DNA of 62,655 nucleotides, filler included. It is 3 parts of 3 records of this genome, joined end to end, with 100 filler letters (N's around TTAATTAATTAA, not from the genome) between each part and the next. Parts side by side here need not be neighbours in the genome. Positions count along the whole stretch, not along the records: positions 26,226 to 46,664 come from SRR31156797_10054; 2 more parts are not named here. One strand, 5' to 3'. The notes under the pieces are model-generated. The model saw only the letters and a program-made list of their open reading frames with translations, did no database searches and was not told the origin of the DNA. The translations under genes were made by a program, and so were the position numbers. Of the stretch, positions 4,682-46,764 are shown piece by piece; position 1 is the stretch's first letter, and each line of letters begins with the position of its first letter.

Positions 4682-4708
4682 AATGAATGTTGTTTATATT
4701 TTGTCAAA

Positions 4709-6426: not shown

Positions 6427-6439
6427 AGGTATGATATGC

Positions 6440-30353: not shown

Positions 30354-31208
30354 TTATTTTTTCATATCAACTTTATGAGACATAAAACCAATAACACCTA
30401 CAAAAAATAATCCACCAACAATATTTCCTAATGTAACAGGTAATAAGTTATTTGGGAAAATTTTTACAAAACTCAATGCTTCTAATTTATCAATTGCCAC
30501 ATGACTATGTGTTGCTAATTCTTGAAGTGAACCTCCAACTTCATTTAAGTAATAAGCTTTAGCAAATAATGCTTCACTAAAAATAAACATATTTGCAACA
30601 ACGTGTTCATAACCAGACCCAACGAATGCTGCAATGATAAATGCTATAGATAACACTTTTCCTGCGGCATCAGAAGCTCCAGTTGCAGACCAAACTGCCA
30701 TACATACAAATACATTACAAAAAATACCTCTAATAAAAGCAGCCTCAAAAGATAGATTAGCTTTTCCAACTCCTAATAAAAGGAAATGGTGTAAAATTTC
30801 ACCGTTATATTTTAAAGGTAACTCTGATTTATAATACATATAAGCAACAATAAATGCACCAACAAAATTAAAAATCCAAACAATAACCCAATAAGTAATC
30901 ATTTTGGGAAAAGTTAATTTTTGATCAATTGTTGAAACTCCTGTCATAAGAGAACTAGTAAAAAGATGCCCTCCAAAGAAAACAACCATCATAAGTCCTA
31001 CTGAGAATGCAACACCTCCAATAAAGTTTGCAATCCCAGGAGAAGATGCTTCGGCAACACCAACTGTTGAATGGGCCCAGAAGATGTCACCCATTGCTAT
31101 TGAACCACCTGCCATAATTGACAAAAATATTACACTTAACATTGGCATGTTAGCTTTATGGTCCATTCCACTAAATAAAGACTTTGCTGTATCTGCTGGT
31201 GATAACAT
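30354..31208 (-). CDS. focA: Formate/nitrite transporter family channel (FocA/FdhC-like)
   Basis: GHLFTS, GIFCNVFVCMAVW, GYEHVVANMF, PVTLGNIVGG. Confidence 0.88.
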   Translation of the reverse strand: MLSPADTAKSLFSGMDHKANMPMLSVIFLSIMAGGSIAMGDIFWAHSTVGVAEASSPGIANFIGGVAFSVGLMMVVFFGGHLFTSSLMTGVSTIDQKLTFPKMITYWVIVWIFNFVGAFIVAYMYYKSELPLKYNGEILHHFLLLGVGKANLSFEAAFIRGIFCNVFVCMAVWSATGASDAAGKVLSIAFIIAAFVGSGYEHVVANMFIFSEALFAKAYYLNEVGGSLQELATHSHVAIDKLEALSFVKIFPNNLLPVTLGNIVGGLFFVGVIGFMSHKVDMKK

Positions 31209-31219
31209 GATTTATCCTT

Positions 31220-31675
31220 TTATATTTTATCCATAAAAATTGAATCAATTTCAAAAACTTTTTCTAAAGCACTTTTTGCTGTTACCTCTGCTTCTTTTGA
31301 TATACTGTCACTTATTCCTAATACATTTTCAATATCAACTGTAAGTCCTAGGAAAAGTACGCTTCCACAAAATCCTCTTAGATAACTAAGAAGTATTGGT
31401 GCAGGAAGATTATGGGTTGAGTACATATAATCTCTATCATCACTTATATCTATAACCTCTACTCTTCCTATTTTTAATCCTGTCATCGCATCGGCAACCA
31501 CAACTAAATCAGGTGCATATTCCCTTATTTTATGAAATTGGCTCTCTGGTGTATCTTCACCATAAAATATTTCCCAGTCTAAAGAACTCTCACCCTCTAT
31601 TAGTTTTCCTAAATATGAAGTGATACCATCATCACCTCTTAATGTATTTCCTATTGTTAGAATTGCTTTTTTCAT
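31220..31675 (-). CDS. hycI: Hydrogenase maturation endopeptidase
   Basis: IGNTLRGDDG, GEDTPE, VADA, STHNLP. Confidence 0.88.
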   Translation of the reverse strand: MKKAILTIGNTLRGDDGITSYLGKLIEGESSLDWEIFYGEDTPESQFHKIREYAPDLVVVADAMTGLKIGRVEVIDISDDRDYMYSTHNLPAPILLSYLRGFCGSVLFLGLTVDIENVLGISDSISKEAEVTAKSALEKVFEIDSIFMDKI

Positions 31676-32019
31676 ATGCTTTTCCTTATTACAATAAAAC
31701 CCTCTTTTAATGATGAAAAAATAGTTTTTAAAGAACAGTCTGGCATTTGAGGTATAAGTTTCTGTGCATGCTCTGGGAAGATTTCAACTTCAAAATATTT
31801 TGTTAAATTTCCTAGTTTAAACTTTGCATACTCTTCACACTCATCAACTATATTTTTATATTTTTCTTCCTCTATTTTTTCTATACACTCCATAAAATCA
31901 ACTGTACCAACTCCATGTCCTACTGACATTGAAAATATTTTTACCTGTTCATATTTTGTAGGTAACTCTTCATTTGTTGGTTCAACTCGTCTTTTTGTTA
32001 ATTTACAAATTTCAATCAT
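31672..32019 (-). CDS. Formate hydrogenlyase maturation protein (HycH/HyfJ family)
   Basis: FSMSVGHGVGTVDF motif, size and position between small subunit and protease. Confidence 0.7.
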   Translation of the reverse strand: MIEICKLTKRRVEPTNEELPTKYEQVKIFSMSVGHGVGTVDFMECIEKIEEEKYKNIVDECEEYAKFKLGNLTKYFEVEIFPEHAQKLIPQMPDCSLKTIFSSLKEGFIVIRKSI

Positions 32020-32029
32020 GATAAACTTC

Positions 32030-32842
32030 TTATATTATAAATTTGTCTTCATCAATTATTTTTGTGAAGTGTTTCATATATTTTAAATATACATCATTAT
32101 GAAGTCTTTTCATACACTCTTTATATCTAGCATCCTCTTCACTGCTATAAATCTCAATTACCTCCTTAGTTTTTTGTATATCTTTGATATCAACACAACT
32201 TTCTAAAGCTGCCATATATTTATCATAAAGTTTTCGCCCAAAGTAGTAGCTCATTAATCTTTTTGCATGGGCTAATACATCCCTTTCAAATAGAATATTT
32301 CCTAATAAAGAAAACTCTATTGTAGGAGATTCATTTGAACCATCTTTATGCTCTTTGTATTGAAGTTTTTGTTCTAAAATACCTAATGCACTAGCTAACC
32401 CATGAACAATAGTTGCAGGATGTGGGGGACAACCTGGAATATAAACATCAACAGGAACTACTTTATCAACTCCACCCCATACACTATAAGCATCATGAAA
32501 AATACCACCACTTGAACCACAAGCTCCAATTGCCACTACAACTTTTGGGTCAGGTGCTACTTCATATGCTCTTAATAAAGGATAATACATCTGTCTTGTA
32601 ACAGGTCCAGAACAAACTAAAATATCTGCATGTCTAGGACTTGCTACAAGTTTAAATCCTAATCTTTCTGGATCCCACATAGGAGTAATGGCTGCAAAAA
32701 TCTCAATCTCACAACCATTACAAGAACCACAATCAACTCTATATACATTAAAACTTTTTTTAATATTTTTTAAATGCTCTAATTTTGCTTCAAGAGAATT
32801 TGCATTTTTAATCTCTTCTGGGACAATATAAGTTTGGCTCAT
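32030..32842 (-). CDS. hyfI: Group 4 hydrogenase small subunit (HyfI/HycG)
   Basis: DCGSCNGCEIE, SPRHAD, GACGSSGG, YIPGCPPHP; ATG 32842 with AAGGAG RBS overlaps hyfH stop. Confidence 0.9.
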   Translation of the reverse strand: MSQTYIVPEEIKNANSLEAKLEHLKNIKKSFNVYRVDCGSCNGCEIEIFAAITPMWDPERLGFKLVASPRHADILVCSGPVTRQMYYPLLRAYEVAPDPKVVVAIGACGSSGGIFHDAYSVWGGVDKVVPVDVYIPGCPPHPATIVHGLASALGILEQKLQYKEHKDGSNESPTIEFSLLGNILFERDVLAHAKRLMSYYFGRKLYDKYMAALESCVDIKDIQKTKEVIEIYSSEEDARYKECMKRLHNDVYLKYMKHFTKIIDEDKFII

Positions 32843-33375
32843 TTTGTACTCCTTGCACAATTTACTACAAGTTTTTCAACTTCCATTGCTCTTTTACAAT
32901 CTGGACAAGTTTTCATATATTTTGTTTTTACATCAATTGTTTTTTCATCCCATCCAGCTTTTTGCAATCTATTTAGATTGTACGCAATAAGTTTTTTTGT
33001 TGTAAAAGGTTTATTACAAACTTCACAATACTCAACATCAAGTTCACCTCTTTCTTTTAAGTCTTTTTTATCAAACTTAACAGCTATTTCAAACTCTTGA
33101 GAAAGAACAACAGCACCTGTTGGACATACCTCATCGCATCTTCCACAAAAGATACATCTTGCAGCATCAAACTCCCAAACAAGTTTATTTTTTCCTTCAT
33201 TTAGTTTTACATTTATTGCATTTGAAGGACAAGCAACTCCACAAGCTGTACAACCTATACAATTTTCATATGTGTATGAAGGTTTCCCTCTAAAACCTTC
33301 ATTTACCTCATAAGGTTCCAATGGATAGGCATAGGTTGCTTTTCCATATTTGTTTGCCATATCAAGTAGTTTCAT
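32839..33375 (-). CDS. hyfH: FHL iron-sulfur subunit (HyfH/HycF, NuoI-like)
   Basis: FRGKP, CIGCTACGVACP, CIFCGRCDEVCP, extra CEVC and CPDC. Confidence 0.9.
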   Translation of the reverse strand: MKLLDMANKYGKATYAYPLEPYEVNEGFRGKPSYTYENCIGCTACGVACPSNAINVKLNEGKNKLVWEFDAARCIFCGRCDEVCPTGAVVLSQEFEIAVKFDKKDLKERGELDVEYCEVCNKPFTTKKLIAYNLNRLQKAGWDEKTIDVKTKYMKTCPDCKRAMEVEKLVVNCARSTK

Positions 33376-33384
33376 CTCTTACTC

Positions 33385-35124
33385 CTACATATTTTTTAAT
33401 GGATGGTTTTTCAAAGATTGTGAATATCTTTTTAAATCCATATGGGTTAATACTTTTGTTTTTTTACTATTAATATCAACCACAGTAACTCTTTCTGTAC
33501 AAGAGTAACAAGGGTCTAATGAGCAAACAATAAGTGCAGCATCTGCAATAGTGTTTCCTCTAAATTGGTATCTTAGTGATGGCCAGTTGTTATATGTAGC
33601 TGCTCTACATCTCCATCTATAAACTTTTTGTGCATTTCCATGCATAATCCAGTGGATATTTTCACCCCTTGGAGCTTCATCATTTCCAATACCATATGCA
33701 CCTGGTTTAATCATAGTTTGTGGTTTTATTACAGTTAAACCACCAGGCATCATCTCAAAACATTGTCTGATAATAGAGATAGATTCTAAAAGCTCTCTAT
33801 ACCTAACTGTTTCTCTTGCAAATACATCACAACCATCTTCAGTTGGGATTTCAAAATCTAATTGAGTTAAAAAGTCATAAGGATGGTCATATCTAGAATC
33901 TCTTTTAAATCCACACCCTCTTACGTTTGGTCCTACAGGTGAAAAATCTCTGGCAACTTGTTTATCTAAGACACCTACACCTTTCCATCTTTCAATTTGG
34001 TTTTTATCATCCATTACTGCATCCCAAACCTCTTTTGTTTGTTGCTCAATGGTTTTAAGTAGTTCCAAACTTTTTTTAATCTCATCTCCTGTCATATCTC
34101 TTCTTAGTCCACCCATAACAACATTTCCGTATGTTTTACGTCCACCTGTTACTAACTGAGCTAACTCCATAGAAAACTCTCTAATTCTAAAGATGTGCAT
34201 AAAAGCGTTTACATTTCCAGTTACTTCACAAGCAAGTCCTATGTTTAATAGATGAGAGTGTAATCTTTCAATCTCTAAACATATGATTCTCATAGCTTGT
34301 GCTCTTAAAGGTATCTCTAACCCTATAGCTTTTTCAGCAGCTTCAATACAAGCAATTGAGTGAGCATATCCACAAATACCACATACTCTTTCTGCTAAAT
34401 AACCCATTTGGTCATAGTTCATTCTATTTTCTGCTAATTTTTCCATACCTCTGTGTTGGTAAAAAAGTCTATAATCAGCATCTATGATAGTATCCCCATC
34501 ACAATATAATCTAAAATGTCCAGGTTCATCACTTGTAATATGTAAAGGTCCTAAAGGTACATCAAGTACCCCTGCTCCTTCAGGTTTTATAAACTCTGCT
34601 TCTGGTTCATCTTTATGGTCAACTGGGTCTGGTCTATGTCTATAATCCATAGAGTCTTTTCTTAAAGGAAATAATCCTTCAGGCCAGTCATCAGATACCA
34701 TTAGTCTTCTTGGGTCTGGTAAACCAACTGCTGTAATCCCAAACATATCATAGGCTTCCCTTTCATACCAAACTGCTGCTGGTACTTTTAGAGTTACTGA
34801 AGGGAAAGTTGGATCATTTGCTGGAAGGAAAGTTTTAACTGTAATCCAACATTTCTCCTCTTGTGGTAACTCATCATCAGGAGTCATTTTTCCACCCTCC
34901 ATAGATAAAACATAATAAAGGGCATAATTTCCATTTATTTGTCTCTCATCATTTGGAATCATAGTTGATAACCAACCACCTAAGTCGTAATATAAAATTC
35001 TTACAGTTTCAGCAAGATCGTTTCTATCAACAGTAATTGTAATTTGATCTTCAGGCTGTCTGTATATATCGTGAATTACTATTTTTTCTTTCACTTTGTT
35101 TATTAAATTGTCACCTATTTTCAT
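33385..35124 (-). CDS. hyfG: Group 4 [NiFe] hydrogenase large subunit (HyfG/HycE)
   Basis: NuoC-like WYEREAYDMFG fused to large subunit; L1 RVCGICGYAH, L2 DPCYSCTER plus cleavable C-terminal tail. Confidence 0.95.
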   Translation of the reverse strand: MKIGDNLINKVKEKIVIHDIYRQPEDQITITVDRNDLAETVRILYYDLGGWLSTMIPNDERQINGNYALYYVLSMEGGKMTPDDELPQEEKCWITVKTFLPANDPTFPSVTLKVPAAVWYEREAYDMFGITAVGLPDPRRLMVSDDWPEGLFPLRKDSMDYRHRPDPVDHKDEPEAEFIKPEGAGVLDVPLGPLHITSDEPGHFRLYCDGDTIIDADYRLFYQHRGMEKLAENRMNYDQMGYLAERVCGICGYAHSIACIEAAEKAIGLEIPLRAQAMRIICLEIERLHSHLLNIGLACEVTGNVNAFMHIFRIREFSMELAQLVTGGRKTYGNVVMGGLRRDMTGDEIKKSLELLKTIEQQTKEVWDAVMDDKNQIERWKGVGVLDKQVARDFSPVGPNVRGCGFKRDSRYDHPYDFLTQLDFEIPTEDGCDVFARETVRYRELLESISIIRQCFEMMPGGLTVIKPQTMIKPGAYGIGNDEAPRGENIHWIMHGNAQKVYRWRCRAATYNNWPSLRYQFRGNTIADAALIVCSLDPCYSCTERVTVVDINSKKTKVLTHMDLKRYSQSLKNHPLKNM

Positions 35125-35135
35125 AGCCTCTCTCC

Positions 35136-36620
35136 TTACATTCCCATGATAATATTTACTGCATTTCTAAGTAGTGTAAACCAAGGTGTTACAGTAAATA
35201 ATCCAAAGATGATTATTAGTGCAGCTAAACCTATTAAAGGTAGATTTGCACTCATTGGTAACTCTTTTCTTAATACTTTAGAGTTACTCTCACCAAATGT
35301 TGCCAAGTTAAAGTGAGAAAAGTCAGCTATAAAGATAATAATAAGTCCAATAATAAATAAAATCACCTCTAGGTTAATTCCATTTATAATAGATTGTTTA
35401 ATCATCATAAACTCACTTACAAATATTGCAAACCCTGGTACACCTACCAATGAACAAACTGCAATACCAAACAATATTGCTGTAATAGGTGCTATTTTTA
35501 TCAAACCACCCATTTTTGTCATATCTCTAGTTCCATATATTTGAATCATATTTCCAGTTACGCAAAAAGCCAAAGCTTTTGTTACTGAGTGAGCTAAAGC
35601 GTGAAATAAAGCTGCAAATAATCCAACTGGACCACCAACACCCAATCCAAATGCTATAACTCCCATATGTGCTATAGAGTGATATGCAAACATTCTTTTA
35701 ACATCATGTTGCATAAGTAGGAAAAATGAAGCTATAAAGATAGTTACTAAACCACTTATTATCATCAATCCTTGTACATACTCAAACCCAGCTAATGAGT
35801 TTCCAGTAACTGCGTAGTATCTAATCAAACCTAATATTGCACATTTTAAAAGAATCCCTGAAAGCATTGCTGAAGAAGGAGCTGGTCCTTCTGAGTGAAC
35901 ATCAGGTAACCAAGTGTGTGTAGGAGCAAGTCCTGCTTTAGTACCAAAACCAATTAGAGCAAATACAAAAATAAGTTTTAGTGCATCTTGGTCTATATCT
36001 TTAGCATGAGCCATTAATGTAGTCCATAACATTGCACTATGGCTATCGTTGATTACATTAAACCCTGCACTATATAAAAGTACAGTTGCATATAAAGCAA
36101 AAGCTAAACCTATACTACAGATAATAATATATTTCCATCCAGTTTCTGTTGATTTTTTACTTTTTTGAACGGCTACCATAAATACAGAAGATAAAGTAGT
36201 AGCTTCAATTCCAACCCACATCAAAGCAATATTGTTTGCTAATACTGAAAAGGTCATAGTAAATACAAAAAGATGGAACAATGAAAAGAATAATCTAGTA
36301 TCTTTTACCTCTAAATGTTTATGTTCAACTTCCCATTGCATATATTTAACAGAATACAAATTTACTAATAATCCTGTTACAGCTATAAGTGAGATAAACA
36401 CTGCTCCTAAAGAATCTATAAAAAACATCTCATCAAAGATAAAGTATGTTTCTCCATCTATTACATTTGATACAGCTAACAATCCAACTATAGTTGTAAG
36501 GATTGAACCAATCACATGTAAAGTACTTAATAGTTTATAATGATTAGGCATCACCCAGATTATTATAGAAGCAACTAAAGGAATAAGGATTAATAAGATT
36601 AATAATTGTTGAATATCCAT
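35136..36620 (-). CDS. hyfF: Hydrogenase-4 membrane subunit F (antiporter-like)
   Basis: WVGIEATTL, GFGTKAGLAPTHTWLPDVH, KRMFAYHS. Confidence 0.88.
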   Translation of the reverse strand: MDIQQLLILLILIPLVASIIIWVMPNHYKLLSTLHVIGSILTTIVGLLAVSNVIDGETYFIFDEMFFIDSLGAVFISLIAVTGLLVNLYSVKYMQWEVEHKHLEVKDTRLFFSLFHLFVFTMTFSVLANNIALMWVGIEATTLSSVFMVAVQKSKKSTETGWKYIIICSIGLAFALYATVLLYSAGFNVINDSHSAMLWTTLMAHAKDIDQDALKLIFVFALIGFGTKAGLAPTHTWLPDVHSEGPAPSSAMLSGILLKCAILGLIRYYAVTGNSLAGFEYVQGLMIISGLVTIFIASFFLLMQHDVKRMFAYHSIAHMGVIAFGLGVGGPVGLFAALFHALAHSVTKALAFCVTGNMIQIYGTRDMTKMGGLIKIAPITAILFGIAVCSLVGVPGFAIFVSEFMMIKQSIINGINLEVILFIIGLIIIFIADFSHFNLATFGESNSKVLRKELPMSANLPLIGLAALIIIFGLFTVTPWFTLLRNAVNIIMGM

Positions 36621-36623
36621 AAC

Positions 36624-37271
36624 TTATCCTTTCAACTGTGTTGCTTTTGATACATCTAAAGAGCCAAAATATTTATAAAATCTTTGTGCAAATATAGATG
36701 TGATAATAACTGCGAAAATTGCATCAGTTAAAATACCTAGTTCTACAATCTCTGGTGAGTTGTATGCCATTAAAGCTAAAGATAAATGAATACCATTTTC
36801 AAAAGTACAATATGCAAGTATTTGTTTTATTGCTGAGTTTCTTAATACAAAACCAAAAACTCCAATCATAAATATTGCTATTGATACTATCAAAGGTATA
36901 TGCTCTTTTATCAATGAAAATTTTAAATACACTGGATATAAAGCCATTGCTATTGCAAGTGAAAATGCAAGGGCAACTATTGGACTTACAAAAAATCCCA
37001 GTACTGGTTCATCTTCATGTACTACATTTAGTTTTTTGATTAATCTTAATAAAATAAAAGGAACAAAAATCACTTTAGTAAAAAATGCAATTATTGCCCA
37101 ACCAGCTAACTCTTCAGCCCCATAAGTGATATATAAAAATAAAAATATCATCACCAATATAAAAGTTTGAAAAGCGTACGCATATGTAGCCATTTTGTAG
37201 TTTCTTATACCAAAAACACAAAGTGAGCTAAAAATCAATACAATTGATAATATACTTAATAAATCATACAT
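36624..37271 (-). CDS. hyfE: Hydrogenase-4 membrane subunit E
   Basis: Polytopic, KQILAYCTFENGIHL, ELGILTD. Confidence 0.85.
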   Translation of the reverse strand: MYDLLSILSIVLIFSSLCVFGIRNYKMATYAYAFQTFILVMIFLFLYITYGAEELAGWAIIAFFTKVIFVPFILLRLIKKLNVVHEDEPVLGFFVSPIVALAFSLAIAMALYPVYLKFSLIKEHIPLIVSIAIFMIGVFGFVLRNSAIKQILAYCTFENGIHLSLALMAYNSPEIVELGILTDAIFAVIITSIFAQRFYKYFGSLDVSKATQLKG

Positions 37272-37272
37272 A

Positions 37273-38196
37273 TCATACTCCTACCACATATAAAACAAGT
37301 GCAATAAATGCAACAATTAGTGGAGGAACTGCGCTTGCTCTAAAACTTGTTAATATTTTGAATCTTGGTCCAAAATTATCAATAAATACTGCTGATACAT
37401 AGAAAATCCCTGCTTTAAGTATAAAAACAATTAAAGCTAGTATTGGGTTTTCAAAATTCCAAGGTTCAAATATAGATAAAAACAATCCAATCATTGCAAA
37501 CTGTTTTAATATCAAAGCTGCATGAGCTAGTGCGAAATCTGAACCCGCATATTCACCTAAAACACCCTCTTGTAACTCTTGTTCTGCTTCAGCTAAATCG
37601 TAAGGGTTTCTTCCTGATTCAACATACATTGCCCATAAAAAAGATATTGATGCTATTGCAAAAGCAGGAGTTTGATAACCAATCTCTCCACTTCTAACTA
37701 AGTGTTGGATCTCTACTAGGTTTGTTGTATTTGCTAATAACATTACAACTAAAAGACTAATCACAATCACAGGTTCTACAAAGATACCAATCACTTGTTC
37801 TCTACTACCACCAACTCCCGCATATGGATTTCCTGAATCTATAGAAGTTGCACCAAATATAAACCTTAATAAAGCACCAAGATAGATAAATACAAATACA
37901 TCTGAATAAGCACCAGCTAAACTATCTGTGCTGTAAGTAATAGGTATAGCTGCTAACAAGGCTGCACCTGCTACAAAAAGTGTAAATGGACCAGTTCTAA
38001 AAATCCAATGTGCACATTTTGGTGCAGTTCTTGCTCTTTTCATAAGCTTGTATATATCTCTATATGTTTGGAAAAAATCAGGCACGCCCTCTCTTGATTG
38101 AAGTTTTGCTCTTAATTTTCTTGCCATACCATCAAATAATGGTGCTACTAAAATTATTGCTATAACTTGAATAAGCATTAAAAATATACTGTTCAT
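37273..38196 (-). CDS. hyfC: Hydrogenase-4 subunit C (NuoH-like)
   Basis: RKLRAKLQSREG, GRNPYDLAEAEQELQEG; ATG 38196 with AAGGA RBS. Confidence 0.88.
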   Translation of the reverse strand: MNSIFLMLIQVIAIILVAPLFDGMARKLRAKLQSREGVPDFFQTYRDIYKLMKRARTAPKCAHWIFRTGPFTLFVAGAALLAAIPITYSTDSLAGAYSDVFVFIYLGALLRFIFGATSIDSGNPYAGVGGSREQVIGIFVEPVIVISLLVVMLLANTTNLVEIQHLVRSGEIGYQTPAFAIASISFLWAMYVESGRNPYDLAEAEQELQEGVLGEYAGSDFALAHAALILKQFAMIGLFLSIFEPWNFENPILALIVFILKAGIFYVSAVFIDNFGPRFKILTSFRASAVPPLIVAFIALVLYVVGV

Positions 38197-38206
38197 AGCA
38201 AATCCT

Positions 38207-40168
38207 TTAAACCATATAACTAAAAGCAATAAAAGCACATAGAGCTAGTAAGATATATAAAGAGTACATATTTACATTTCCATTTTGCATTTTTGCTACT
38301 GTTCTTGCTGTTCGCATAGTTAGATTAATAACCGGTTGATAAAATATATCCCACCACACATCTCTTGCGTGGGTTTTATAAATAACTGGTTTAAAATAAC
38401 CTTGGTCAACAACCTCTGTTTTACTTTTATATAACCAATCAAGTATTCTTCTTAGGTCACCTGTAAAAGGTGAAGCAGTCATTTGCATTCTGCTGTTATA
38501 TTTAAATCCGCAAGCCCAAGGGTCAGTTTCTCTTGGAGCTGTTCTATTTGCATTAGAAAATTTAACAATCATAAGTGGTAAGATAACTGTTACAGCTAAA
38601 ACAACTGCAATCAACAAGGGAGATACCATAGAGCCAATTGGTGAACTTACAACTGCACCATTTACCGCTTCATATTTACCAGAAAAAGTACTAACAACTT
38701 GCATTATGTTTTCTACTACAACATTTGCACCTAAACCAAAAGCTACACATCCAAATACTAAAATAAACATCCCTAATACCATAGAAAAAGGAACTTCTCT
38801 AGCTTTATCAAAGATTTTTTCATCTCTTGGTGTACCACCAAAAATCACTGTATAAACTTTTACAAAACACATTACTGCTAAAGCTCCTGTTAAAGCTAAA
38901 GCAACAACTGCTAATACAAATACTGCACGACTTCCTATATATGGAGCTAGAGCTCCTTGAATCATACCTTGGTAAGTTACCCATTCACTAACAAAACCAT
39001 TTAATGGTGGAATTGCTGTAATAGCTAAAGAACCAATTAAAAAAGCAAATGCTGTAAATGGCATTTTTTTAGCTAAACCACCTAACACATCCATATCTTT
39101 TGTATGAGTTCTATATAAAACACTTCCTGCACCTAAAAAAAGTAAACCTTTAAAGGTTGCATGGTTTAGAATATGATAAAGTCCTGCTAAAAAACCAACA
39201 GCTGCTAAAGTTGGCATATTTGCTGCAATTCCATAAACTCCAGTTCCTAAACCTAAAAGAATAATTCCAATATTTTCAACTGAGTGGTAAGCTAATAAAG
39301 CTTTATAATCGTGTTGTACTAAAGCATATAGTACCCCTAAAAGTGCAGATAAGGCTCCAACTATAATAATAAGTAAACCCCACCATTGCATAACTGGCAA
39401 CCATAAACAAAATTTAATAATCCCAAATAAAGCAACTTTAATCATAACTCCACTCATAAGTGCAGATACATTTGTTGGTGCTGCTGGGTGAGCTTTTGGT
39501 AACCAAACATGCATAGGAAACATCCCTGCTTTTGAACCAAAACCAATAAATGCTAATAAAAATATAATACTTGCTCTTGTTGGACTTAATGTAATATTTT
39601 CAAAAGAACTAAACTCCATAGAACCAGATTGTGCAGCTAACAGTAAAAATGCTGCTGTAATACACATAGCTCCAAGGTGCGCAATTCCTAAATAAATCAT
39701 AATCGCTTTTAATGAACTTTTTGAGTCATTAAAACAGATTAAATATGCTGAGATTATTGTCATACACTCCCAGTAAATTATAAACCAAAACACATCTGAA
39801 GAAGCAATCAATAAAAGCATAGATAAGATAAAGGCATTAAACATACCTGCCATAACAGCAAGGCTTCCTTTTTTCTCATACTCTAGTGAATATTGAATTG
39901 CATACACTGATGAAGCAAAAGCTACAAGTGATACAACAAATGAAAAAAAGTTTCCTAAAGGGTTTAAAGTAAGTTTTGGACTATACAATAAGCCCTCAAA
40001 CATAGTGTAACTTGAGCTTTCACCCATGTTAATTAAAAAATAGAAAACTCCAAAACCTGATGCAACAGCAGAGATAAAAAACCCAACTTTTGCAGCAATT
40101 TTATTTTGTTTATATAATAGTAATGAAATAACACAACCAAAAAGATATAAAAAATACACTTGTGTCAT
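38207..40168 (-). CDS. hyfB: Hydrogenase-4 subunit B (antiporter-like)
   Basis: GSKAGMFPMHVWLPKAHPAAP, LLAYHSVENIG, PPLNGFVSEW, PWACG. Confidence 0.9.
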   Translation of the reverse strand: MTQVYFLYLFGCVISLLLYKQNKIAAKVGFFISAVASGFGVFYFLINMGESSSYTMFEGLLYSPKLTLNPLGNFFSFVVSLVAFASSVYAIQYSLEYEKKGSLAVMAGMFNAFILSMLLLIASSDVFWFIIYWECMTIISAYLICFNDSKSSLKAIMIYLGIAHLGAMCITAAFLLLAAQSGSMEFSSFENITLSPTRASIIFLLAFIGFGSKAGMFPMHVWLPKAHPAAPTNVSALMSGVMIKVALFGIIKFCLWLPVMQWWGLLIIIVGALSALLGVLYALVQHDYKALLAYHSVENIGIILLGLGTGVYGIAANMPTLAAVGFLAGLYHILNHATFKGLLFLGAGSVLYRTHTKDMDVLGGLAKKMPFTAFAFLIGSLAITAIPPLNGFVSEWVTYQGMIQGALAPYIGSRAVFVLAVVALALTGALAVMCFVKVYTVIFGGTPRDEKIFDKAREVPFSMVLGMFILVFGCVAFGLGANVVVENIMQVVSTFSGKYEAVNGAVVSSPIGSMVSPLLIAVVLAVTVILPLMIVKFSNANRTAPRETDPWACGFKYNSRMQMTASPFTGDLRRILDWLYKSKTEVVDQGYFKPVIYKTHARDVWWDIFYQPVINLTMRTARTVAKMQNGNVNMYSLYILLALCAFIAFSYMV

Positions 40169-40178
40169 AACTTATCCT

Positions 40179-40745
40179 TTATAAATATTTCGCTCTTTCT
40201 TGTACTAAAGACTCAACAGCTAATTGTGCTTTTTCTTCTATATAAGTGTTGTTTGAAACATTTTCAAAAGATAAAGCACCAGTAGGACAAACTTCGACAC
40301 ATGAAGGTCCATCCTCTCTTCCTAAACATAAATCACATTTAACAGCTATACTTTTTGCTCCTGCTTGTGATTCGACTCCTAAGTTATATTTTGGTTCCAT
40401 CGTGTAATCAACCGAAGGCATTAATTCTGCTTCAGGTCTAATTGCTCCAAAAGGGCAAGCTAATGTACACATTTTGCAACCTATACAAATCTCTTCATGT
40501 AATAAAATAGAATCTTTACCAAACTCTAAAGCTCCAACGGGACAAACATTTGCACAAGGAGCATCATCACATTGTCTACATTGGTTTGGCATTGTTCCAC
40601 TTTTTGTTCTTGTTACCACTAATCTTGGAACCGCTAATTTTCCTCTTTGGTATGCGGACTCATAACATGCTGCCATACAAGTTGCACACCCTATACAAGT
40701 GTTTGGATTAGCAATTACATATTTGTTGTTTAATGCTAAACTCAT
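40179..40745 (-). CDS. hyfA: 4x[4Fe-4S] ferredoxin subunit (HyfA/HycB)
   Basis: CIGCATCMAAC, CRQCDDAPCANVCP, CIGCKMCTLACP, KCDLC..CVEVCP. Confidence 0.9.
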   Translation of the reverse strand: MSLALNNKYVIANPNTCIGCATCMAACYESAYQRGKLAVPRLVVTRTKSGTMPNQCRQCDDAPCANVCPVGALEFGKDSILLHEEICIGCKMCTLACPFGAIRPEAELMPSVDYTMEPKYNLGVESQAGAKSIAVKCDLCLGREDGPSCVEVCPTGALSFENVSNNTYIEEKAQLAVESLVQERAKYL

Positions 40746-40747: not shown

Positions 40748-42985
40748 TTATCTCCTTACAGTACGATATAGTTCAGATGGATGCATTTGCATATCTGTAT
40801 GGTTACGAATCTCTATAAACTCTTGTTCTGTTATTTTTTTGATATTAGCGATTGTCATTTTTAATGGATTCATACCAGATAAAGGATCTTTATCTTCTGC
40901 ATTTGCCAACTCATTTCCATCTGCTTCTGCATAATGGAAGGTTGTAAAAATAGTTCCATGTCTTAAATCATGGTTGATATTAACTTTTGCAGCAATTTTT
41001 CCTCTTTTATTTTCAACAACAGCATAACACCCCTCATCTAGTTCTCTTTCTCTTGCAATATCATCACTAACTTCAATTGCAGCTCCCATAAAATCTGAAC
41101 CTAGTTCTAAGGGTTTACACTCTCTTGTCATTGTTCCTGTGTGATAATGATAAACTTTTCTACCAGTTGTAAACAAACAAGGATAAAGCTCATTTACTTT
41201 CTCACTCATTGCACCTGAACCTATTGGGTAATCTTCAGGCATATTAAATTTATTTACGAATTCTTTTTCAAGATTTGCTCTTTGATTTTTATCATCTGCA
41301 TAAATTACTGGTACTAATTTAAATTTTCCATCAGGTAACATAGATTTTTTATCTTCATATAATACAGGTGTTCCTGGATGTTCATTGGTTGGACAAGGCC
41401 AACTAATACCATTGTTTTCTTCCATTCTTTTATAAGATATTCCACCAAAGAATTTTGGGTTTACTTCTCTTACTTCATTCCAAATCTCTTCAGAAGTTTT
41501 AAAATCAAAACCTTTCAAACCTATCTCATTTGCAATATTTGCTACAACTTGCCAATCAGATACAAGGTTTTCATTTGGTTCAATTGCTTTTTTAATAAGT
41601 TGTACTCTTCTTGAAGTATTTATAAAAGTTCCATCTTTTTCTGCCCATGATGCAGCAGGTAAGATTACATCAGCTTTTTGTGCTGTTTCAGTTAAAAATA
41701 TATCTTGAACAATAAATGTTTCTAATTCACTTACTGCTTTTACGAAGTGTTCTGTCCAAGGGTCACTCATAACTGGGTTTTCACCAAACACATAAAGTAA
41801 TTTTAGTTTTCCCTCTTCAATTTTTTCTGGAGCATGTGTTAAAGAATATCCCACTTTATCACTTATCTCATAGCCCCAAACATCTTTTATATGTGCTCTA
41901 ACTTCTGGATTTGTTACCATCCCATTTGGTACTACATTTGGTAAAGCTCCCATATCACAAGAACCTTGTACATTGTTTTGTCCTCTTAAAGGATTTACAC
42001 CTGCACCTTTTTTACCTAAGTTACCAGTTAAAATAGCTAAGTTTGATAATGAAAAGATATTTGATGTACCATCAATAAATTGTGTCATACCCATTGTATA
42101 ACATATTGCTGCGGCACTTGCTTTTGCGTATGTTCTTGCAGCTTCTTTTACAAGCTCTTGAGAGATACCAGTTTCCTCTTCTACTCTTTTGGGAGTAAAC
42201 TCTTTTACTGCCTCTTTTACATACTCAAAACCTACAGAGTAGTTTTCTACAAACTCTTTGTCATATAATTTTTCTTCAATTATATAGTTTATCATTGCAT
42301 TTAAAAAAGGTATATTGTAACCAACTGGTGTTTGGATATAGAGGTCTGCTTTTTTTGCCATATCTGTTCTTTTTGGGTCAATAACAATCATTTTTGCCCC
42401 TCGTTCAAGACCTCTTAACATCTGCATCGCAATTATTGGGTGGCACTCACTTGTATTTGTACCAATTAAAACTAATACTTCACTATGTGTAGCAAACTCA
42501 ACCAAGTCATTTGTCATAGTTCCATTTCCAAGAGTTTTAGTCAGACCGACTACTGTTGGACCATGTCAAAGTCTTGCACAGTGATCTATATTATTAGTTC
42601 CTAAAGTTCTAAATAGTTTTTGGAAGACATAGTTATCTTCATTTGAACATCTAGCTGATGAGAATCCCATCATACTATCTGCACCATATTTGTCCACTGT
42701 AGATTTGATTTTTGAAGCAACAAAACTATAAGCTTCTTCAAAACTAACCTCTACTAATTTACCCTCTTTAGAAAAAACACCATCTTTTTTTCTCATCATA
42801 GGTTTTGTTAGTCTTCTTGGTGAGTGAACATACTCCCAACCAAAAAGTCCTTTTAGACAAAGTTCTCCATCATTAATATGATGTCCTACTGTTGGTGTTG
42901 CTTTTTTGATTTTATTGTTTTCTACATGTAAATCAAGATTGCAACCTGTTCCACAATAGGGGCATGTAGTCTGAATTTTTTTCAT
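40748..42985 (-). CDS. fdhF: Selenocysteine formate dehydrogenase H-type alpha subunit (copy 1), 745 aa, Sec140
   Basis: ORFs 42566-42985 and 40748-42517 are in frame across TGA 42566-42568: DHCARL-U-HGPTVVGLTKTLGNG; CPYCGTGC..C; RGQNNVQG. Confidence 0.94.
42538..42552 (-). promoter_or_regulatory. Bacterial SECIS hairpin of fdhF copy 1
   Basis: TAGTC-GGTCT-GACTA starting 14 nt after the UGA. Confidence 0.85.
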
Positions 42986-43090
42986 AATTTCTCCTTCATG
43001 ACCTGTATTAATCTTAAATTTATAATTAAAGATTTAATTTAATAAAAAATTAATATCATTGAAATACTAATATAAAAATAATCTTTTTTC

Positions 43091-43106
43091 TGTCACGAAT
43101 GTGACA
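43091..43106. promoter_or_regulatory. CooA-type operator box 1, TGTCA-CGAATG-TGACA
   Basis: Palindromic half-sites with 6-nt spacer in the fdhF1/regulator intergenic region. Confidence 0.75.
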
Positions 43107-43197
43107 AATGAATAAATATTCATTTATTTAATTATTTTTTATAAATTTCTGATATTTTTTTGATTATTGATAAAATCGAATCCAGAAGAGTAAAAAG

Positions 43198-43213
43198 TGT
43201 CAGATTTCTGACA
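43198..43213. promoter_or_regulatory. CooA-type operator box 2, TGTCA-GATTTC-TGACA
   Basis: Same half-sites and spacing as box 1; core of an 18-bp perfect inverted repeat 43187-43224. Confidence 0.72.
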
Positions 43214-43374
43214 CTTTTTACTCTATATAAAATTATAAATAATTATTTAAGGGGTTAAATTATTAAAAAATAACTAATTTTTAATAACTTGATTAATAAA
43301 TCATTTTAAATTTATTTTAAAAAAAGTATAAAATTGTTAATATAATTTTAATGCTAGCTCAAAGGGGTTTAAGT

Positions 43375-44013
43375 ATGGAATCAAATAGGTTAAGAATAGA
43401 CTCTGTTGACTTATCTAAAATTCTATCTGAAGAGCAGTTCTCTTCTTTAAAAATTAAAAAGTTTAAAAAAGGTAGTTTAGAATATGAAAATGGCTCATTA
43501 ACCCTATATGTTTTCAAATCAGGAAAAGCAAAAGCTTTAATCTATGAAGATGGTGAAGAGTTTGTATTATATTTTTTGCAAGCTAATAATATAATCATAC
43601 CTGAGACCTCATGTGCTATTGAGTTTGTTGAAGATAGTGAAGTTTATTTGATAGATGCTGAAAAGTTTAGCAACTTATTTTCTAACAAAGAATTTTCAAC
43701 ATCTGTTATACACTCACTTAAACACAGAGCTGAACTTGAAAGAAGTATAATAAAAAATCTTGTATTTAAAAGTTGTAAAAAGAAGATTGCATCATTTCTA
43801 CTTGAAATAGCTATAACTCAAGATAATATTGTTAATGGTAAATATGTAATTGAACTAAATATCTCAATAAAAACCTTATCAAGCTTTATTGGTTCTAAAA
43901 GACAAACTGTTTCAACTATAATAAATGAACTATTAAAGAAAAAAATTATTGAAAAAATAGATAAAAATAGATATGTAATAAATAAATATGAAGAGTTAGA
44001 AAATTATGATTGA
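43375..44013 (+). CDS. CRP/FNR superfamily regulator, CooA-like
   Basis: FKSGKAK..EDGEEFVL beta-roll, IIKNLVFK hinge, HTH IGSKRQTVSTIINEL; AAGGGG RBS and TATAAT at 43341-43346. Confidence 0.88.
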   Translation: MESNRLRIDSVDLSKILSEEQFSSLKIKKFKKGSLEYENGSLTLYVFKSGKAKALIYEDGEEFVLYFLQANNIIIPETSCAIEFVEDSEVYLIDAEKFSNLFSNKEFSTSVIHSLKHRAELERSIIKNLVFKSCKKKIASFLLEIAITQDNIVNGKYVIELNISIKTLSSFIGSKRQTVSTIINELLKKKIIEKIDKNRYVINKYEELENYD

Positions 44014-44016
44014 TTT

Positions 44017-44045
44017 ATAAGTAAAGAGAGTTTCTCTTTACTTAT
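44017..44045. terminator. Hairpin between convergent genes
   Basis: ATAAGTAAAGAGA-GTT-TCTCTTTACTTAT 13-bp inverted repeat. Confidence 0.65.
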
Positions 44046-44233
44046 TTTAGCTTTCCTAAAAATGATTCTAGCCATTTTTCTGCATCTTCGATAGTATCAA
44101 ATCTTTTTGATTTTGCTACTTGGTCTTGACCTTCATAAAATCTAACTCTAATACCATCTTCAACATGGTCAATCTTAGTTCTAGTGATTTTTGCCATATT
44201 TAAGTAAACTCTTTCATTTAATTTAACAAACAT
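44042..44233 (-). CDS. Small hypothetical protein (63 aa)
   Basis: GAGGAG RBS, ATG start, 16 nt after YedF-like gene, globular composition. Confidence 0.75.
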   Translation of the reverse strand: MFVKLNERVYLNMAKITRTKIDHVEDGIRVRFYEGQDQVAKSKRFDTIEDAEKWLESFLGKLK

Positions 44234-44249
44234 TTTTTCTCCTCTTATA

Positions 44250-44603
44250 TTAAAATGATACTACATTTTCATTTAACAGCATTGCCACAGTATCAATAGC
44301 ATTACCAGGCTTACCAACTTTTAGTTCATCTCTTACTTCATAATAATCTAAACAAGTTCCACAAGAGAAAATAGATACGCCCTTCTCTTCAAGAATCTTT
44401 AGACTATTTAAAACTTCAATATTTTCATCTGAGTCTGATGTTGTTAGTAAAACTGCACTATTAACACATATAATAGTTGCAGGCAGTTTTTCTTGTTCTG
44501 TCATAGCTTTTAGAAAACCGTTAATTAACATTGAACCTAATTCACCCTCACCTATTTTACTAGATTTCAAGAAAACAGTTTTACCTTTTGTTTCATTACT
44601 CAT
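44250..44603 (-). CDS. DsrE-fold protein, YedF selenium-metabolism-like
   Basis: IGEGELGSMLINGFL, NSAVLLTT, SCGTCLDYY. Confidence 0.78.
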   Translation of the reverse strand: MSNETKGKTVFLKSSKIGEGELGSMLINGFLKAMTEQEKLPATIICVNSAVLLTTSDSDENIEVLNSLKILEEKGVSIFSCGTCLDYYEVRDELKVGKPGNAIDTVAMLLNENVVSF

Positions 44604-44798: not shown

Positions 44799-45821
44799 TT
44801 ATATCCAATGTACATTTTTAGTATTAATGTTTACAAAAATCTCATCTGCTGGCAAAAATCTTTGTATTTGCATCTCTTCTCGTGTAACTCTACAATTAAA
44901 ATATATATCTGAAATTGTAAACTCAACCAACATATGCTCTTTGGATTTTTGTTGAGAGATTGAAGTTACTATTGCTTTTAAACTTTTTTCATTTTTCATA
45001 TCATCGCAATTAACTCTACAAATATCAATATCTATTGAATCAATCATTACCACTGAATCTCTTTTTTTGCTTTGACTATTTTCTATCTCTAGAGTTTGTG
45101 AATCAGTGAATGTTTTTACAAGATTTCCCTTTTCATTTTTTTCCCAAGGAGAAAAAAGTAGATTTACACTTCCACTATCTATTAAATGCCCTTGAAATAA
45201 AGCAATTTTTCTATCACAAATATGGTTTAACCAGTTATGGTCATGACTTGAGATTAAAATTGTTGTATTCCATCTTTGTTTTGCACAAAGTATCGCTTCT
45301 TTTATAAGTTGAGCTGAGTTTGTATCAACTCCTGTTGTTGGCTCATCTAATATTAATACCTTTGGTTTTAGTATGAGTCTTACTGCTAGAGCAACTCTTT
45401 GAGCTTCCCCACCTGATAGTTGACTCCATTTTCTTTTTGCAAAAGATTTATCTAAACCTACTAAAGACAAAGCTTCATAAACTTTCTCTTCTATATTATT
45501 TTCTTCGTTTCTTATTTTTAAACCATATGCAATATTTTCATAAACAGTTCTTTTTAATAAATAGGGATTTTGTGGAACTATTACAATACTTTGTTTTAAT
45601 TCATGAGATAGATGCTTATCATCAATCCCTTCAAATAATATTTGCCCTTTTGTTTGCTTTTGCATAAAAGACAATAGTGAGAATAAAGTTGATTTCCCAC
45701 TTCCATTTGGTCCAAAGAAGCCGATGATTTGACTATCTTCTAATATAAGTTTATCTATACTTAGTACTTTTCTTCCATCATAATACTGTTCAATATTGTT
45801 TAATTCATATAATGTAGCCAT
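44799..45821 (-). CDS. tupC: Tungstate ABC transporter ATP-binding subunit
   Basis: GPNGSGKST, LSGGEAQRVALA, LDEPT; TAATG coupling to tupB. Confidence 0.8.
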   Translation of the reverse strand: MATLYELNNIEQYYDGRKVLSIDKLILEDSQIIGFFGPNGSGKSTLFSLLSFMQKQTKGQILFEGIDDKHLSHELKQSIVIVPQNPYLLKRTVYENIAYGLKIRNEENNIEEKVYEALSLVGLDKSFAKRKWSQLSGGEAQRVALAVRLILKPKVLILDEPTTGVDTNSAQLIKEAILCAKQRWNTTILISSHDHNWLNHICDRKIALFQGHLIDSGSVNLLFSPWEKNEKGNLVKTFTDSQTLEIENSQSKKRDSVVMIDSIDIDICRVNCDDMKNEKSLKAIVTSISQQKSKEHMLVEFTISDIYFNCRVTREEMQIQRFLPADEIFVNINTKNVHWI

Positions 45822-46516
45822 TATTGATTCCATTTTCCTCTAAGTATAGATAAAGATATATTTATCATAAGTGCGATTGAGATTAAAACCAAACCAAGTG
45901 CAATACCAGTAACAAACTCACCCTTTCCTGTTTCAAGTGCAATTGCAGTAGTGATTGTTCTTGTATGGTATTTGATATTTCCACCTACCATCATTGAAAT
46001 ACCAATCTCAGTCATAATTCTTCCATAAGCAGTCATAGCGGCTGTCATAAGTCCAAATCTAGCTTCTATTAATGTTGCAACTAATATTTGCTTTGAACTA
46101 GCTCCTATGCCTTTTAAAGAGACATAAAGTCTTTTATCTACTGCTTCTACTTGTATAGCAGTTAATGCAACAATAATAGGCAGACCTAAAACAATCTGTC
46201 CTATTATTATCGCTTTTTGAGAAAAAAGTAAACCAAAACTACCGAAAGGTCCCACTTGTGATAACATTGTATAAGCGATAAGTCCAATAACCACTGTAGG
46301 CAATGCTAATAAAGTATCTACTATTGTTCTTATTATGGCTTTTCCTGGGAAATTATAATATCCCAGAAAAAAACCTAAAGGAAGTCCTATTAATAAACTT
46401 ATCAATAAAGACCAAGAAGATACTACAAGTGTTGTAGATATAGCAGAGTAAACACTTTCATCTCCAGATGCTAGTAGCTTAAATGCTTCATTAAAACCAT
46501 CGGTAAATAGATTCAT
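45821..46516 (-). CDS. tupB: Tungstate ABC transporter permease
   Basis: LPTVVIGL, GRIMTEIGISMMVGGNIKYHTRTITTAIALETGKG. Confidence 0.88.
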   Translation of the reverse strand: MNLFTDGFNEAFKLLASGDESVYSAISTTLVVSSWSLLISLLIGLPLGFFLGYYNFPGKAIIRTIVDTLLALPTVVIGLIAYTMLSQVGPFGSFGLLFSQKAIIIGQIVLGLPIIVALTAIQVEAVDKRLYVSLKGIGASSKQILVATLIEARFGLMTAAMTAYGRIMTEIGISMMVGGNIKYHTRTITTAIALETGKGEFVTGIALGLVLISIALMINISLSILRGKWNQ

Positions 46517-46531
46517 ACTTTTTTATATTCC

Positions 46532-46664
46532 TTATTTATCTGCGTTTGGAATAAATAATGCTTTGTCTAATAATCTAAAGTCAGCAATAAATTTTTGAGT
46601 CTCATCACTTACAATCCAATTAGTGAATTTAGTTGCTAATTCAGGTTTAACATTTGAACATTTT
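46532..46664 (-). CDS. tupA: Tungstate-binding protein C-terminus (5' truncated, not in ORF track)
   Basis: Manual translation KCSNVKPELATKFTNWIVSDETQKFIADFRLLDKALFIPNADK*, directly upstream of tupB. Confidence 0.75.
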
Positions 46665-46764
46665 NNNNNNNNNNNNNNNNNNNNNNNNNNNNNNNNNNNN
46701 NNNNNNNNTTAATTAATTAANNNNNNNNNNNNNNNNNNNNNNNNNNNNNNNNNNNNNNNNNNNN
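46665..46764. other. Artificial contig linker N44-TTAATTAATTAA-N44
   Basis: Identical to first linker; GC rises after it. Confidence 0.98.

Follow-up and report, generated by a model that had tools for sequence, protein, structure and literature searches.

Introduction

Within the CRP/FNR family, CooA (R. rubrum, 1FT9; C. hydrogenoformans CooA-1, 2FMY/2HKX) is the carbon monoxide (CO)-sensing heme activator of the coo operons and acts on genes for a group-4 energy-converting [NiFe] hydrogenase. The heme of R. rubrum CooA is reported to be coordinated by His77 and by the N-terminal Pro2 of the other subunit, and the shortened loop of CooA to make room for it (PMC12750200). Reported CooA operators read TGTCGGCnnGCCGACA in Desulfovibrio and R. 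rubrum (PMC545781) and TCTGTCAGC-N2-GCTGACAGA in Citrobacter (PMC5371261). Here we analyse a gene of the CRP/FNR fold and of a CooA-like subfamily (43375..44013, plus strand, 212 amino acids plus stop; hereafter the regulator) in a 62,655-base stretch of DNA, the window, where it lies divergent from a formate hydrogenlyase (FHL) operon. CooA is its nearest described relative in sequence and fold. The two proteins have in common the shortened beta-loop, the N-terminal arm, the RQT(V)S recognition helix, a palindromic TGTC(A/G)-N6-(T/C)GACA operator with the promoter-proximal site over the -35 region, and the kind of hydrogenase operon that they target. Unlike CooA, the regulator carries Glu77 in place of the axial His, has no Pro2-type terminus, replaces the distal Gly by Lys and pocket Ala/Ser/Thr by Phe/Tyr, and has gained Arg5, Tyr37 and Arg123. 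Its partner is a selenocysteine (Sec) formate dehydrogenase with a formate channel, not CO dehydrogenase, and, as far as its members are named, its clade occurs in Campylobacterota only. It lacks three CooA-defining traits: the His ligand, the distal Gly and the linkage to CO dehydrogenase (CODH).

To our knowledge, regulation of FHL is understood in enterobacteria only, where FhlA and HyfR, formate-responsive sigma-54 enhancer-binding proteins, act on FHL-1 and FHL-2 of E. coli. They presumably do the same job as the regulator, each being a dedicated activator of fdhF-hyc/hyf genes encoded alongside them. The regulator, in contrast, belongs to an unrelated family and could at most be a functional analogue: it has neither a GAF domain nor an AAA+ domain for sigma-54 activation, and its locus lacks a promoter of the sigma-54 type. 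NtcA (2-oxoglutarate) and CprK (chlorophenolacetate) are CRP-family members with organic-acid effectors; they are much more distant from the regulator than CooA (E 1e-6 to 1e-5) and differ in their long loop, operators and regulons. The heme-based NO sensors HcpR and DNR belong to the same superfamily, and their heme sites are reported not to be predictable from CooA ligands alone (PMC12750200). They are not close to the regulator in sequence, have a long beta6-beta7 loop and use operators given as TTGTGA-N6-TCACAA (PMC545781). For Campylobacterota, a review of respiratory regulation names, in the parts consulted, no FNR/CRP-type regulator with a known role (PMC6682613).

A first-pass annotation of the window had described the gene as a heme-less CooA-family regulator and candidate formate sensor of a kind not previously reported. 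Our literature searches, with little coverage of subscription journals, likewise found no description of such a regulator. The comparisons below establish as real a conserved, so far undescribed CooA-branch variant of the CRP/FNR family that is wired to FHL. We tentatively put forward the complete proposal of a CooA-derived, probably heme-free, dedicated FHL activator with formate as its effector.

Relationship of the regulator to CooA

The open reading frame (ORF) extends over 43351..44013 on the plus strand (220 amino acids), and its in-frame ATG at 43375 gives the 212-residue protein. Most aligned homologues start at the aligned Met (MES/MDS/MPF and similar) and an AAAGGGG Shine-Dalgarno-like run lies 7 nt 5' of this ATG, so that the start at 43375, and with it the span first annotated, is right. 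The sequence strings quoted in that annotation were all present in the translation: RLRIDSVDLSKIL (R5-L17), IIPE (I74-E77), LKHRA (L115-A119), IIKNLVFK (I125-K132) and RQTVS (R176-S180). PF13545 (HTH_Crp_2) matched with 45.9 bits (cut-off 27) and PF00027 (cNMP-binding-like) with 23.5 bits, under its cut-off of 27.5. No NCBIfam equivalog came near its cut-off, the best being NtcA with 29.2 bits against 244.95, and an ESM Atlas search returned generic Crp/Fnr clusters only.

Searches of the PDB with phmmer gave CooA as the top three full-length matches (2hkx, 2.5e-20; 2fmy, 1e-19; 1ft9, 8.7e-15); the next families, 3dv8, CprK, NtcA and CRP, followed from E 1e-6, 13 orders of magnitude behind the best match. 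In these alignments IIPE stood opposite F-C-T-H in the C. hydrogenoformans protein and F-C-M-H in its R. rubrum counterpart, whose L-G-R-A-L segment paired with LKHRA. A family profile of the window protein and 25 of 54 search matches (alignment A1, 26 rows) was compared by hhalign with a second profile (A3), built from 28 CooA-type representatives that carry the His. The two aligned over 214 columns with a probability of 99.95 % (E 1.2e-37), again with Glu77 opposite His82. Both methods thereby reproduced the CooA alignment that the annotation had given. The regulator also has the 8-residue gap, i.e. the shortened beta-loop, that sets CooA-type rows apart from long-loop relatives. The CooA-type N-terminal arm is present and aligned; it starts Met-Glu-Ser-Asn-Arg, and Arg5 is absent from CooAs. 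In CooA this flexible arm supplies the second heme ligand, either Pro2 or the free amine. An AlphaFold model built on A1 (mean pLDDT 89.4) shows eight strands followed by a helix at 105-131. Its TM scores with CRP-family structures were 0.7-0.87, with 2hkx_A on top (0.87), and 0.54 and 0.53 with the off-state entries 2fmy and 1ft9.

For the phylogeny, a profile search of 1.84 billion representatives yielded 3046 matches with E <= 1e-3, of which 233 reached <= 1e-10 and 13 reached <= 1e-30. From these, 150 were taken together with family members, and the 146 sequences of 185-260 amino acids were kept. Weaker rows were thinned to every fourth for a quick tree of 96 rows and from there to a careful tree of 63 rows. 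The latter separated 12 long-loop CRP/FNR outgroup rows (100/99) from the short-loop proteins, which formed one clade of 51 rows (100/99). Within it, the clade of the regulator comprises 26 rows (100/100) and has a long branch (1.32). Among the other 25 short-loop rows are near relatives of the two solved CooAs, P0077 (1.3e-75 to 2fmy) and P0091 (4.9e-80 to 1ft9). In alignment and tree alike, the regulator thus groups with bona fide CooAs, and the shortened beta-loop is common to both. On this sequence evidence the regulator is a member of a clade that groups with CooA.

The unconstrained tree placed the 26-row clade among the CooAs (83/94). A tree in which the CooA-type rows were held together was 8.2 log-likelihood units better and was not rejected (p-AU 0.70). 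Of the annotated idea of a CooA scaffold that lost its heme, the kinship and the absence of the axial His are borne out; a loss of His is not, these trees being compatible with a sister as well as with a nested position. Two members of the 26-row clade, P0056 and P0059 (Caminibacter mediatlanticus), kept His at position 77. Two proteins inside the His-bearing CooA radiation, P0098 and P0111, have Ser or Gly there, which is an independent loss, so that His was lost at least once more inside the CooAs. Because of the His in P0056 and P0059, this further loss and the retained short loop, a heme site is the likely ancestral state.

All named members of the 26-row clade are Campylobacterota (Malaciobacter, Arcobacter, Sulfurospirillum, Sulfurimonas, Campylobacter, Caminibacter and Nautilia). 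Sister groups of the family vary at the ligand site. The Caminibacter-type members combine His77 with the derived Phe84 and Lys123. The Nautilia-type proteins P0218, P0221 and P0227 have a C-x-C motif at the ligand site, a Cys4-Arg5 arm and an altered recognition helix, S-R-Q-R-F-S. A homologue search with P0073 returned three proteins. The clade member of Nautilia profundicola is annotated as 'putative CooA-1', and a Sulfurospirillum bin is reported to carry cooA and hydrogenase genes with no cooS (PMC5518199); this cooA locus may be of the same kind as the one studied here. Both cases are a warning against automatic 'CooA' labels.

Residues at the CooA heme site and the proposed effector pocket

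The pocket was compared between 34 His-bearing CooA-type rows and 17 rows of the FHL-linked family. In pairwise and profile alignments alike, Glu77 of the regulator lies opposite His82 of C. hydrogenoformans CooA and His77 of R. rubrum CooA. All 34 CooA-type rows have His at this position; the family has Glu (12), Val (2), Gly (2) or Ser (1). Among the 26 rows of A1 there were 21 Glu, 4 Val, 1 Gly and no His, which bears out the annotation's observation that the heme-ligand segment F-C-x-H has become IIPE. The two His of the regulator (113 and 117, its only ones) are not conserved in the family, and Met1 is its only Met. The replacement of the distal-pocket Gly was equally evident: position 116 is Gly in 30 CooA-type rows (3 Ala, 1 Cys), whereas the family has Lys (10, among them Lys116 of the regulator), Val (4), Ser (1) and Asp (1). 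Gly117 of R. rubrum CooA is important as a small residue of the distal pocket.

Further positions with small residues in CooA-type rows are bulky in the family. Position 84 is Ala (31) or Thr (3) in CooA-type rows and Phe in all 17 family rows. Position 57 changes from mostly Ala (15) or Ser (11) to Tyr (16) or Phe (1), and position 66 from Ala (13), Thr (5), Phe (4) or Ser (4) to Tyr (15). Polar and basic residues appear alongside. Position 123, Phe (14), Ile (7), Met (4) or Thr (3) in CooA-type rows, is Arg in 17/17 family rows; position 122, Ser (15), Thr (8) or Ala (6), is Glu (15) or Gln (2); position 37, Phe (13), Ser (11), Ala (4) or Tyr (2), is always Tyr. Position 5, mostly a gap or variable in CooA-type rows, is Arg in 17/17 family rows and in all 33 sampled rows of the clade. 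Arg5, Tyr37 and Arg123 are also found in the 12-row Campylobacter-type subclade (Arg123 12/12), and the 4-row Nautiliales-type group has Arg or Lys at position 123. Judged by these substitutions, the space of the CooA heme site seems to be filled, with a conserved polar and basic set in its place, and the regulator probably has no CooA-type heme. An FNR-type Cys cluster, too, is absent as annotated, since Cys80 and Cys134 are the only cysteines of the protein.

Operators and promoter geometry

The minus-strand operon begins 389 bp from the regulator gene with fdhF. Two palindromic boxes lie in between: an operon-proximal operator, TGTCACGAATGTGACA (43091..43106), centred 113.5 bp ahead of the fdhF ATG, and a distal operator, TGTCAGATTTCTGACA (43198..43213), 107 bp from the proximal box centre. 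They are the only exact TGTCA-N6-TGACA sequences in the window, against 0.07 expected, and none of 100 shuffles reached two; the matching boxes next to the regulator had been pointed out in the first-pass annotation. In the window and the 13 loci with full-length relatives described below (L001-L013; 291,369 bases together) there are 22 exact boxes, all of them in regulator/FHL intergenic regions, and boxes accompany the regulator gene in 12 of the 13 loci.

A predicted -10 hexamer of the fdhF-hyf promoter, TAGTAT (43064..43069, minus strand), lies 21 nt downstream of the proximal box, which puts the centre of the box at -41.5 from a predicted transcription start near 43057. The same arrangement recurs throughout. 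A TAnnnT motif starts at offset 22 after the box in 14/14 proximal sites, the boxes closest to a structural gene (runner-up offset 7/14; background 0.099), and the intervening 21-nt spacers are 19-95 % identical from site to site. This count places the box centre at -41.5, the class II activator geometry. CRP, FNR and CooA activate from this position.

The recognition helix likewise is that of CooA. Arg176, Gln177, Thr178, Val/Ile179 and Ser180 occur in 17/17 family rows; among 34 CooA-type rows the corresponding residues are Arg (34), Gln (34), Thr (26), Val (22) and Ser (31). The annotated retention of CooA DNA specificity therefore stands, given the RQTVS helix and an operator half-site that matches the published CooA operators.

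A distal box was found in the window, L001, L002, L004 and L005, 104-116 bp from the proximal box. It may serve cooperative binding or autoregulation, conceivably of class II, although hexamer offsets vary among the five loci that carry it. In the window a perfect 18+2+18 palindrome (43187-43224) surrounds the distal operator; the distal boxes of the other four loci have no such extension. Two further arrangements deserve mention. A Sulfurimonas metagenome-assembled genome (MAG) contig (L010:75-170) has a 96-bp tandem array of six abutting 16-bp operator copies, three exact and three with one mismatch, which lies some 130 bp 5' of the regulator ATG and 74 bp from the contig end. In a Sulfurospirillum MAG (L009:4589-9719), two tandem fdhF copies lie upstream of hyfA, and each of the three intergenic gaps, ahead of the two fdhF copies and of hyfA, has its own operator at class II spacing.

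Linkage to formate hydrogenlyase across loci

A genome scan gave 16 loci, of which L001-L013 (Arcobacteraceae, Sulfurospirillum and Sulfurimonas) carry full-length relatives with 37-84 % identity. The remaining three, L014-L016 (Bacteroides, Porphyromonadaceae and Pedobacter), were set aside as unrelated CRP-family fragments with 24-40 % identity over 54-88 residues. The neighbourhood survey proposed in the annotation placed fdhF/hyf beside the regulator in 11/11 informative loci of these 13. The divergent neighbour is fdhF in eight loci and hyfA in L001 and L002; in L013, the most distant, the regulator is co-directional and lies just upstream of fdhF-hyf. L007 and L010 are uninformative, because their contigs break off 114 and 297 bp ahead of the regulator gene.

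Kruse et al. report an fdh- and formate-transporter-linked hyf cluster in Arcobacter, Caminibacter and 4 of 15 Sulfurospirillum genomes, and describe genomes with this linked cluster as lacking pyruvate formate-lyase (PMC6242987). Because this enzyme is reported to be lacking, external formate is the expected substrate. A Pfam scan of 56 window ORFs found no CODH family and no sigma-54 activator domain, and no CODH genes were present in the related loci. Sigma-54 promoter-like sites in the window were at chance level (230 matches, 214.6 expected). The contig is thus devoid of CODH, as annotated, and no FhlA/HyfR-type activator is encoded locally, in line with the annotated replacement of FhlA/HyfR.

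Proposed mode of action and alternatives

The linkage, operators and spacing make it very likely that the protein is a dedicated FHL regulator, and likely, to a slightly lesser degree, that it is an activator rather than a repressor. We propose that a homodimeric CRP/FNR-type activator, of common origin with CooA, would be dedicated to the divergent FHL operon. Its sensor domain would no longer bind heme in the CooA fashion, the axial His having given way to Glu/Val/Gly, the distal Gly to Lys/Val and pocket Ala/Ser/Thr to Phe/Tyr. Instead, the clade-conserved polar set of Arg5 (N-terminal arm), Tyr37, Lys53, Glu/Gln122 and Arg123 (C-helix) might bind a small anionic effector, most likely formate, which FocA would let in or which would build up inside the cell. 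Once bound, the effector would shift the C-helices and the arm in the way of CO in CooA and switch FHL on, the regulator thereby filling the role of FhlA/HyfR in enterobacteria.

Four points speak for formate. Two formate dehydrogenases, a formate channel and the hydrogenase make up the sole conserved regulon; Arg5, Tyr37 and Arg123, with Lys53, are a set of the carboxylate-binding kind; NtcA and CprK are precedents for organic-acid effectors in the CRP family; and the organisms, reported to be without pyruvate formate-lyase (PMC6242987), would use external formate. We nevertheless assign formate as the effector with some hesitation, as a possibility somewhat short of probable. More doubtful still is the wider notion that a gas-sensor scaffold has become a metabolite sensor, a heme-free CooA descendant binding formate through Arg5, Tyr37 and the C-helix Arg123. 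The carboxylate would then act as CO does in CooA, releasing or re-docking the arm and repositioning the C-helices. Operator type, -41.5 design and group-4 hydrogenase target would have been kept, with the exchange of CO dehydrogenase for formate dehydrogenase as the sole change.

If this is true, the regulator would be the first formate-responsive activator of the one-component, sigma-70 type, and it would supply the FHL regulator so far missing from Campylobacterota. The locus offers a testable candidate for FHL regulation whose operator and promoter are mapped by comparison. For the heme-sensor field, the His-bearing CooAs, the Caminibacter-type His, the Nautilia-type C-x-C and the Asp77 and Glu77 forms are a natural series on one scaffold. 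This series could reveal how an effector pocket is rebuilt with the DNA-binding and polymerase-contact parts left untouched.

Several points weigh against the proposal. The 14/14 and 11/11 counts are measures of conservation and not of independent events, because the loci share descent. The annotation had seen a basic, anion-suited pocket in L-K-H-R-A; as a family feature this did not hold, with Lys116 in 10, His117 in 2 and Arg118 in 11 of 17 rows, and the basic residues that are conserved lie at other positions (5, 53 and 123). Lys53, present in 31 of 33 sampled clade rows, is not a gained anion site, because it is inherited: 32 of 34 CooA-type rows have Arg there. With its bulky substitutions, the pocket may be closed altogether. 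For the distal box, no conserved hexamer offset or promoter geometry was found among its five loci. The regulon may also be larger than the fdhF/hyf operon, as about 20 kb around each gene was searched, and in C. concisus the single annotated CRP/FNR gene (13826_2145) is distant by locus tag from hyfB (13826_1914) in the data reported (PMC6155014). The assignment of formate is a good hypothesis built on sequence. Four further findings on this side, the residue at position 121, Cys80, the oxyanion transporters and the heme ligand of HcpR, bear on particular alternatives and are weighed with them.

One alternative, which we consider unlikely, is an activator that needs no effector, in which pocket collapse and a C-helix zipper of greater hydrophobicity would lock the dimer in the DNA-binding form. 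FHL expression would then follow the amount of regulator made, governed by its own promoter and perhaps the distal box, or the oxidation of the Cys80/Cys134 thiols when oxygen is present. The small-to-bulky changes at 57, 66, 84 and 116 agree with this, and so does position 121, Leu/Met/Ile in the family and Asn/Ser/Gly/His in CooAs. This position aligns with N127L of 2hkx, the first of two Leu substitutions that separate 2hkx from 2fmy, and the 2hkx variant is presumably CO-independent. The hydrophobic residue hints at a constitutively zipped dimer, being as compatible with an effector-independent protein as with any other. The AlphaFold model, too, is nearest to 2hkx_A and far from the off-state structures; this resemblance is of little weight, however, since predictors tend toward the DNA-binding form of the fold. 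Cys80 and Cys134 each occur in 14 of 17 family rows, and in five loci a second box lies nearer the regulator. The cysteines are nevertheless missing in different members, show no co-variation and are both absent from the Campylobacter-type subclade; a Cys80-Cys134 redox switch as a reading of its own was rejected on these grounds. The invariance of Arg5, Tyr37 and Arg123 (position 123 being Arg or Lys in the Nautiliales-type group) in a clade of 25-45 % identity suggests a functional site and not a plug, and a dedicated regulator without input would be unusual. A dedicated activator that responds to another anion or cue tied to FHL has a similarly low probability. Tungstate or molybdate (FdhF cofactor supply), bicarbonate/CO2, another organic acid or the H2/redox state come into question. 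Expression of hyc in E. coli depends on molybdate, and the invariant Arg/Arg/Tyr/Lys set would suit any oxyanion. A gene for a YedF-like selenium-metabolism protein adjoins the regulator in the window, and 6 of the 12 loci that extend past the regulator encode an oxyanion ABC transporter there. It is TupB/TupC-like in the window, L003 and L005, and a PBP_like_2 or TOBE-containing system in L006, L011 and L012. Yet no such transporter was found within 10 kb in L001, L002, L004, L008 and L009, so that the adjacency is not conserved, and it would be expected anyway beside a tungsten/molybdenum enzyme. No TGTCA-N6-TGACA box precedes the transporter genes, and fdhF/hyf is the sole universal linkage.

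Persistence of a heme-based gas or redox sensor with ligation through other residues, e.g. Cys80 or the N-terminal arm, is very unlikely. It would accord with the retained CooA-type shortened loop and N-terminal arm, with the basic residues at 51 and 53 common to CooA and with His77 in P0056 and P0059. Absence of the CooA ligands is in itself no proof of the absence of heme, because other ligands and sites are used: HcpR, with Met68 as its reported heme ligand (PMC12750200), shows that non-CooA heme sites exist. Against a heme stand the lack of any conserved His or Met, Lys at the Gly116 equivalent, the changes of Ala84 to Phe and of Ala/Ser57 and Ala/Thr66 to Tyr, and the absence of CODH genes from the contig and the related loci. 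Hardly credible, finally, is a repressor of FHL, or boxes that belong to another CRP/FNR paralogue and adjoin the gene incidentally. The box does overlap the -35 region, and in a simple scan GTGACA-16-TATATT can be read as a promoter that uses the box half-site. But the -41.5 spacing holds at every proximal site, against 7/14 for the alternative offset, and the relatives CooA, CRP and FNR are known to activate from there. The boxes, moreover, accompany the gene in nearly all loci and suit its CooA-type helix.

Gene organization and other features of the window

The divergent operon, Sec-fdhF-hyfABCEFGHI-hycHI-focA-fdhF, spans 15 kb on the minus strand. It is led by fdhF copy 1 of the Sec formate dehydrogenase-H type (40748..42985), in which the TGA at 42566-42568 encodes Sec140. 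A SECIS_3-like hairpin over this TGA (42513-42571) was found with Rfam at E 1.3e-5, under the gathering score. There follow hyfA (40179-40745), hyfB (38207-40168), hyfC (37273-38238), hyfE (36624-37271), hyfF (35136-36620), hyfG (33385-35124), hyfH (32839-33375), hyfI (32030-32860), hycH (31672-32019) and hycI (31220-31675), all on the minus strand. This hyfA-hycI block (31220..40745) encodes a group-4 [NiFe] hydrogenase of the Hyf type. It is followed on the same strand by the formate channel gene focA (30354-31208) and by fdhF copy 2 (28094-30343), with Sec141.

The regulator gene itself is preceded by a candidate basal promoter with the sigma-70 consensus-like pattern TTAAAA-18-TATAAT (43317..43346, plus strand) just 5' of the ATG, a pattern match only. 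An intrinsic-terminator-like hairpin (44017..44045, plus strand; 1 found, 0.1 expected) lies directly 3' of the stop, and the gene is therefore monocistronic. In 42400-44300, Rfam gave no riboswitch or leader; besides SECIS_3 it reported only a miRNA match that falls on the palindrome and is due to chance. Beyond the regulator gene, the YedF-like protein (44250-44603, minus strand) is half-size and covers model positions 81-192 of 194. The TupC/TupB-like tungstate transporter genes lie at 44799-46516 on the minus strand. Both neighbours fit cofactor supply for the two Sec-containing FdhF enzymes.

The window consists of three contigs, and each of the two joins (26126-26225 and 46665-46764) is made up of a 44-N run, TTAATTAATTAA and a second 44-N run. 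Because of these joins, only 26226-46664 (about 20.4 kb) is the contig of the regulator, and genes beyond it are not its context. The second join truncates a gene at 46520-46664. The third contig (46765-62655) has a G+C content of 41 %, compared with 32 % elsewhere, and may thus stem from another organism or another part of the genome. The first contig, not that of the regulator, carries a heme-biosynthesis run on the minus strand (72-7702) with genes for coproporphyrinogen oxidase, URO-D, a class III aminotransferase (HemL-like), ALAD, HemD, porphobilinogen deaminase and glutamyl-tRNA reductase. Beside the first join, the neighbouring ORFs 25255-25548 and 25614-26027 (minus strand) cover two successive halves of DUF2807 (profile positions 2-99 and 103-181) and hence suggest that one gene has been split. 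On the other side of this join, a 106-amino-acid ORF (26368-26688, plus strand) resembles methyl-accepting chemotaxis proteins at their C-terminal end only.

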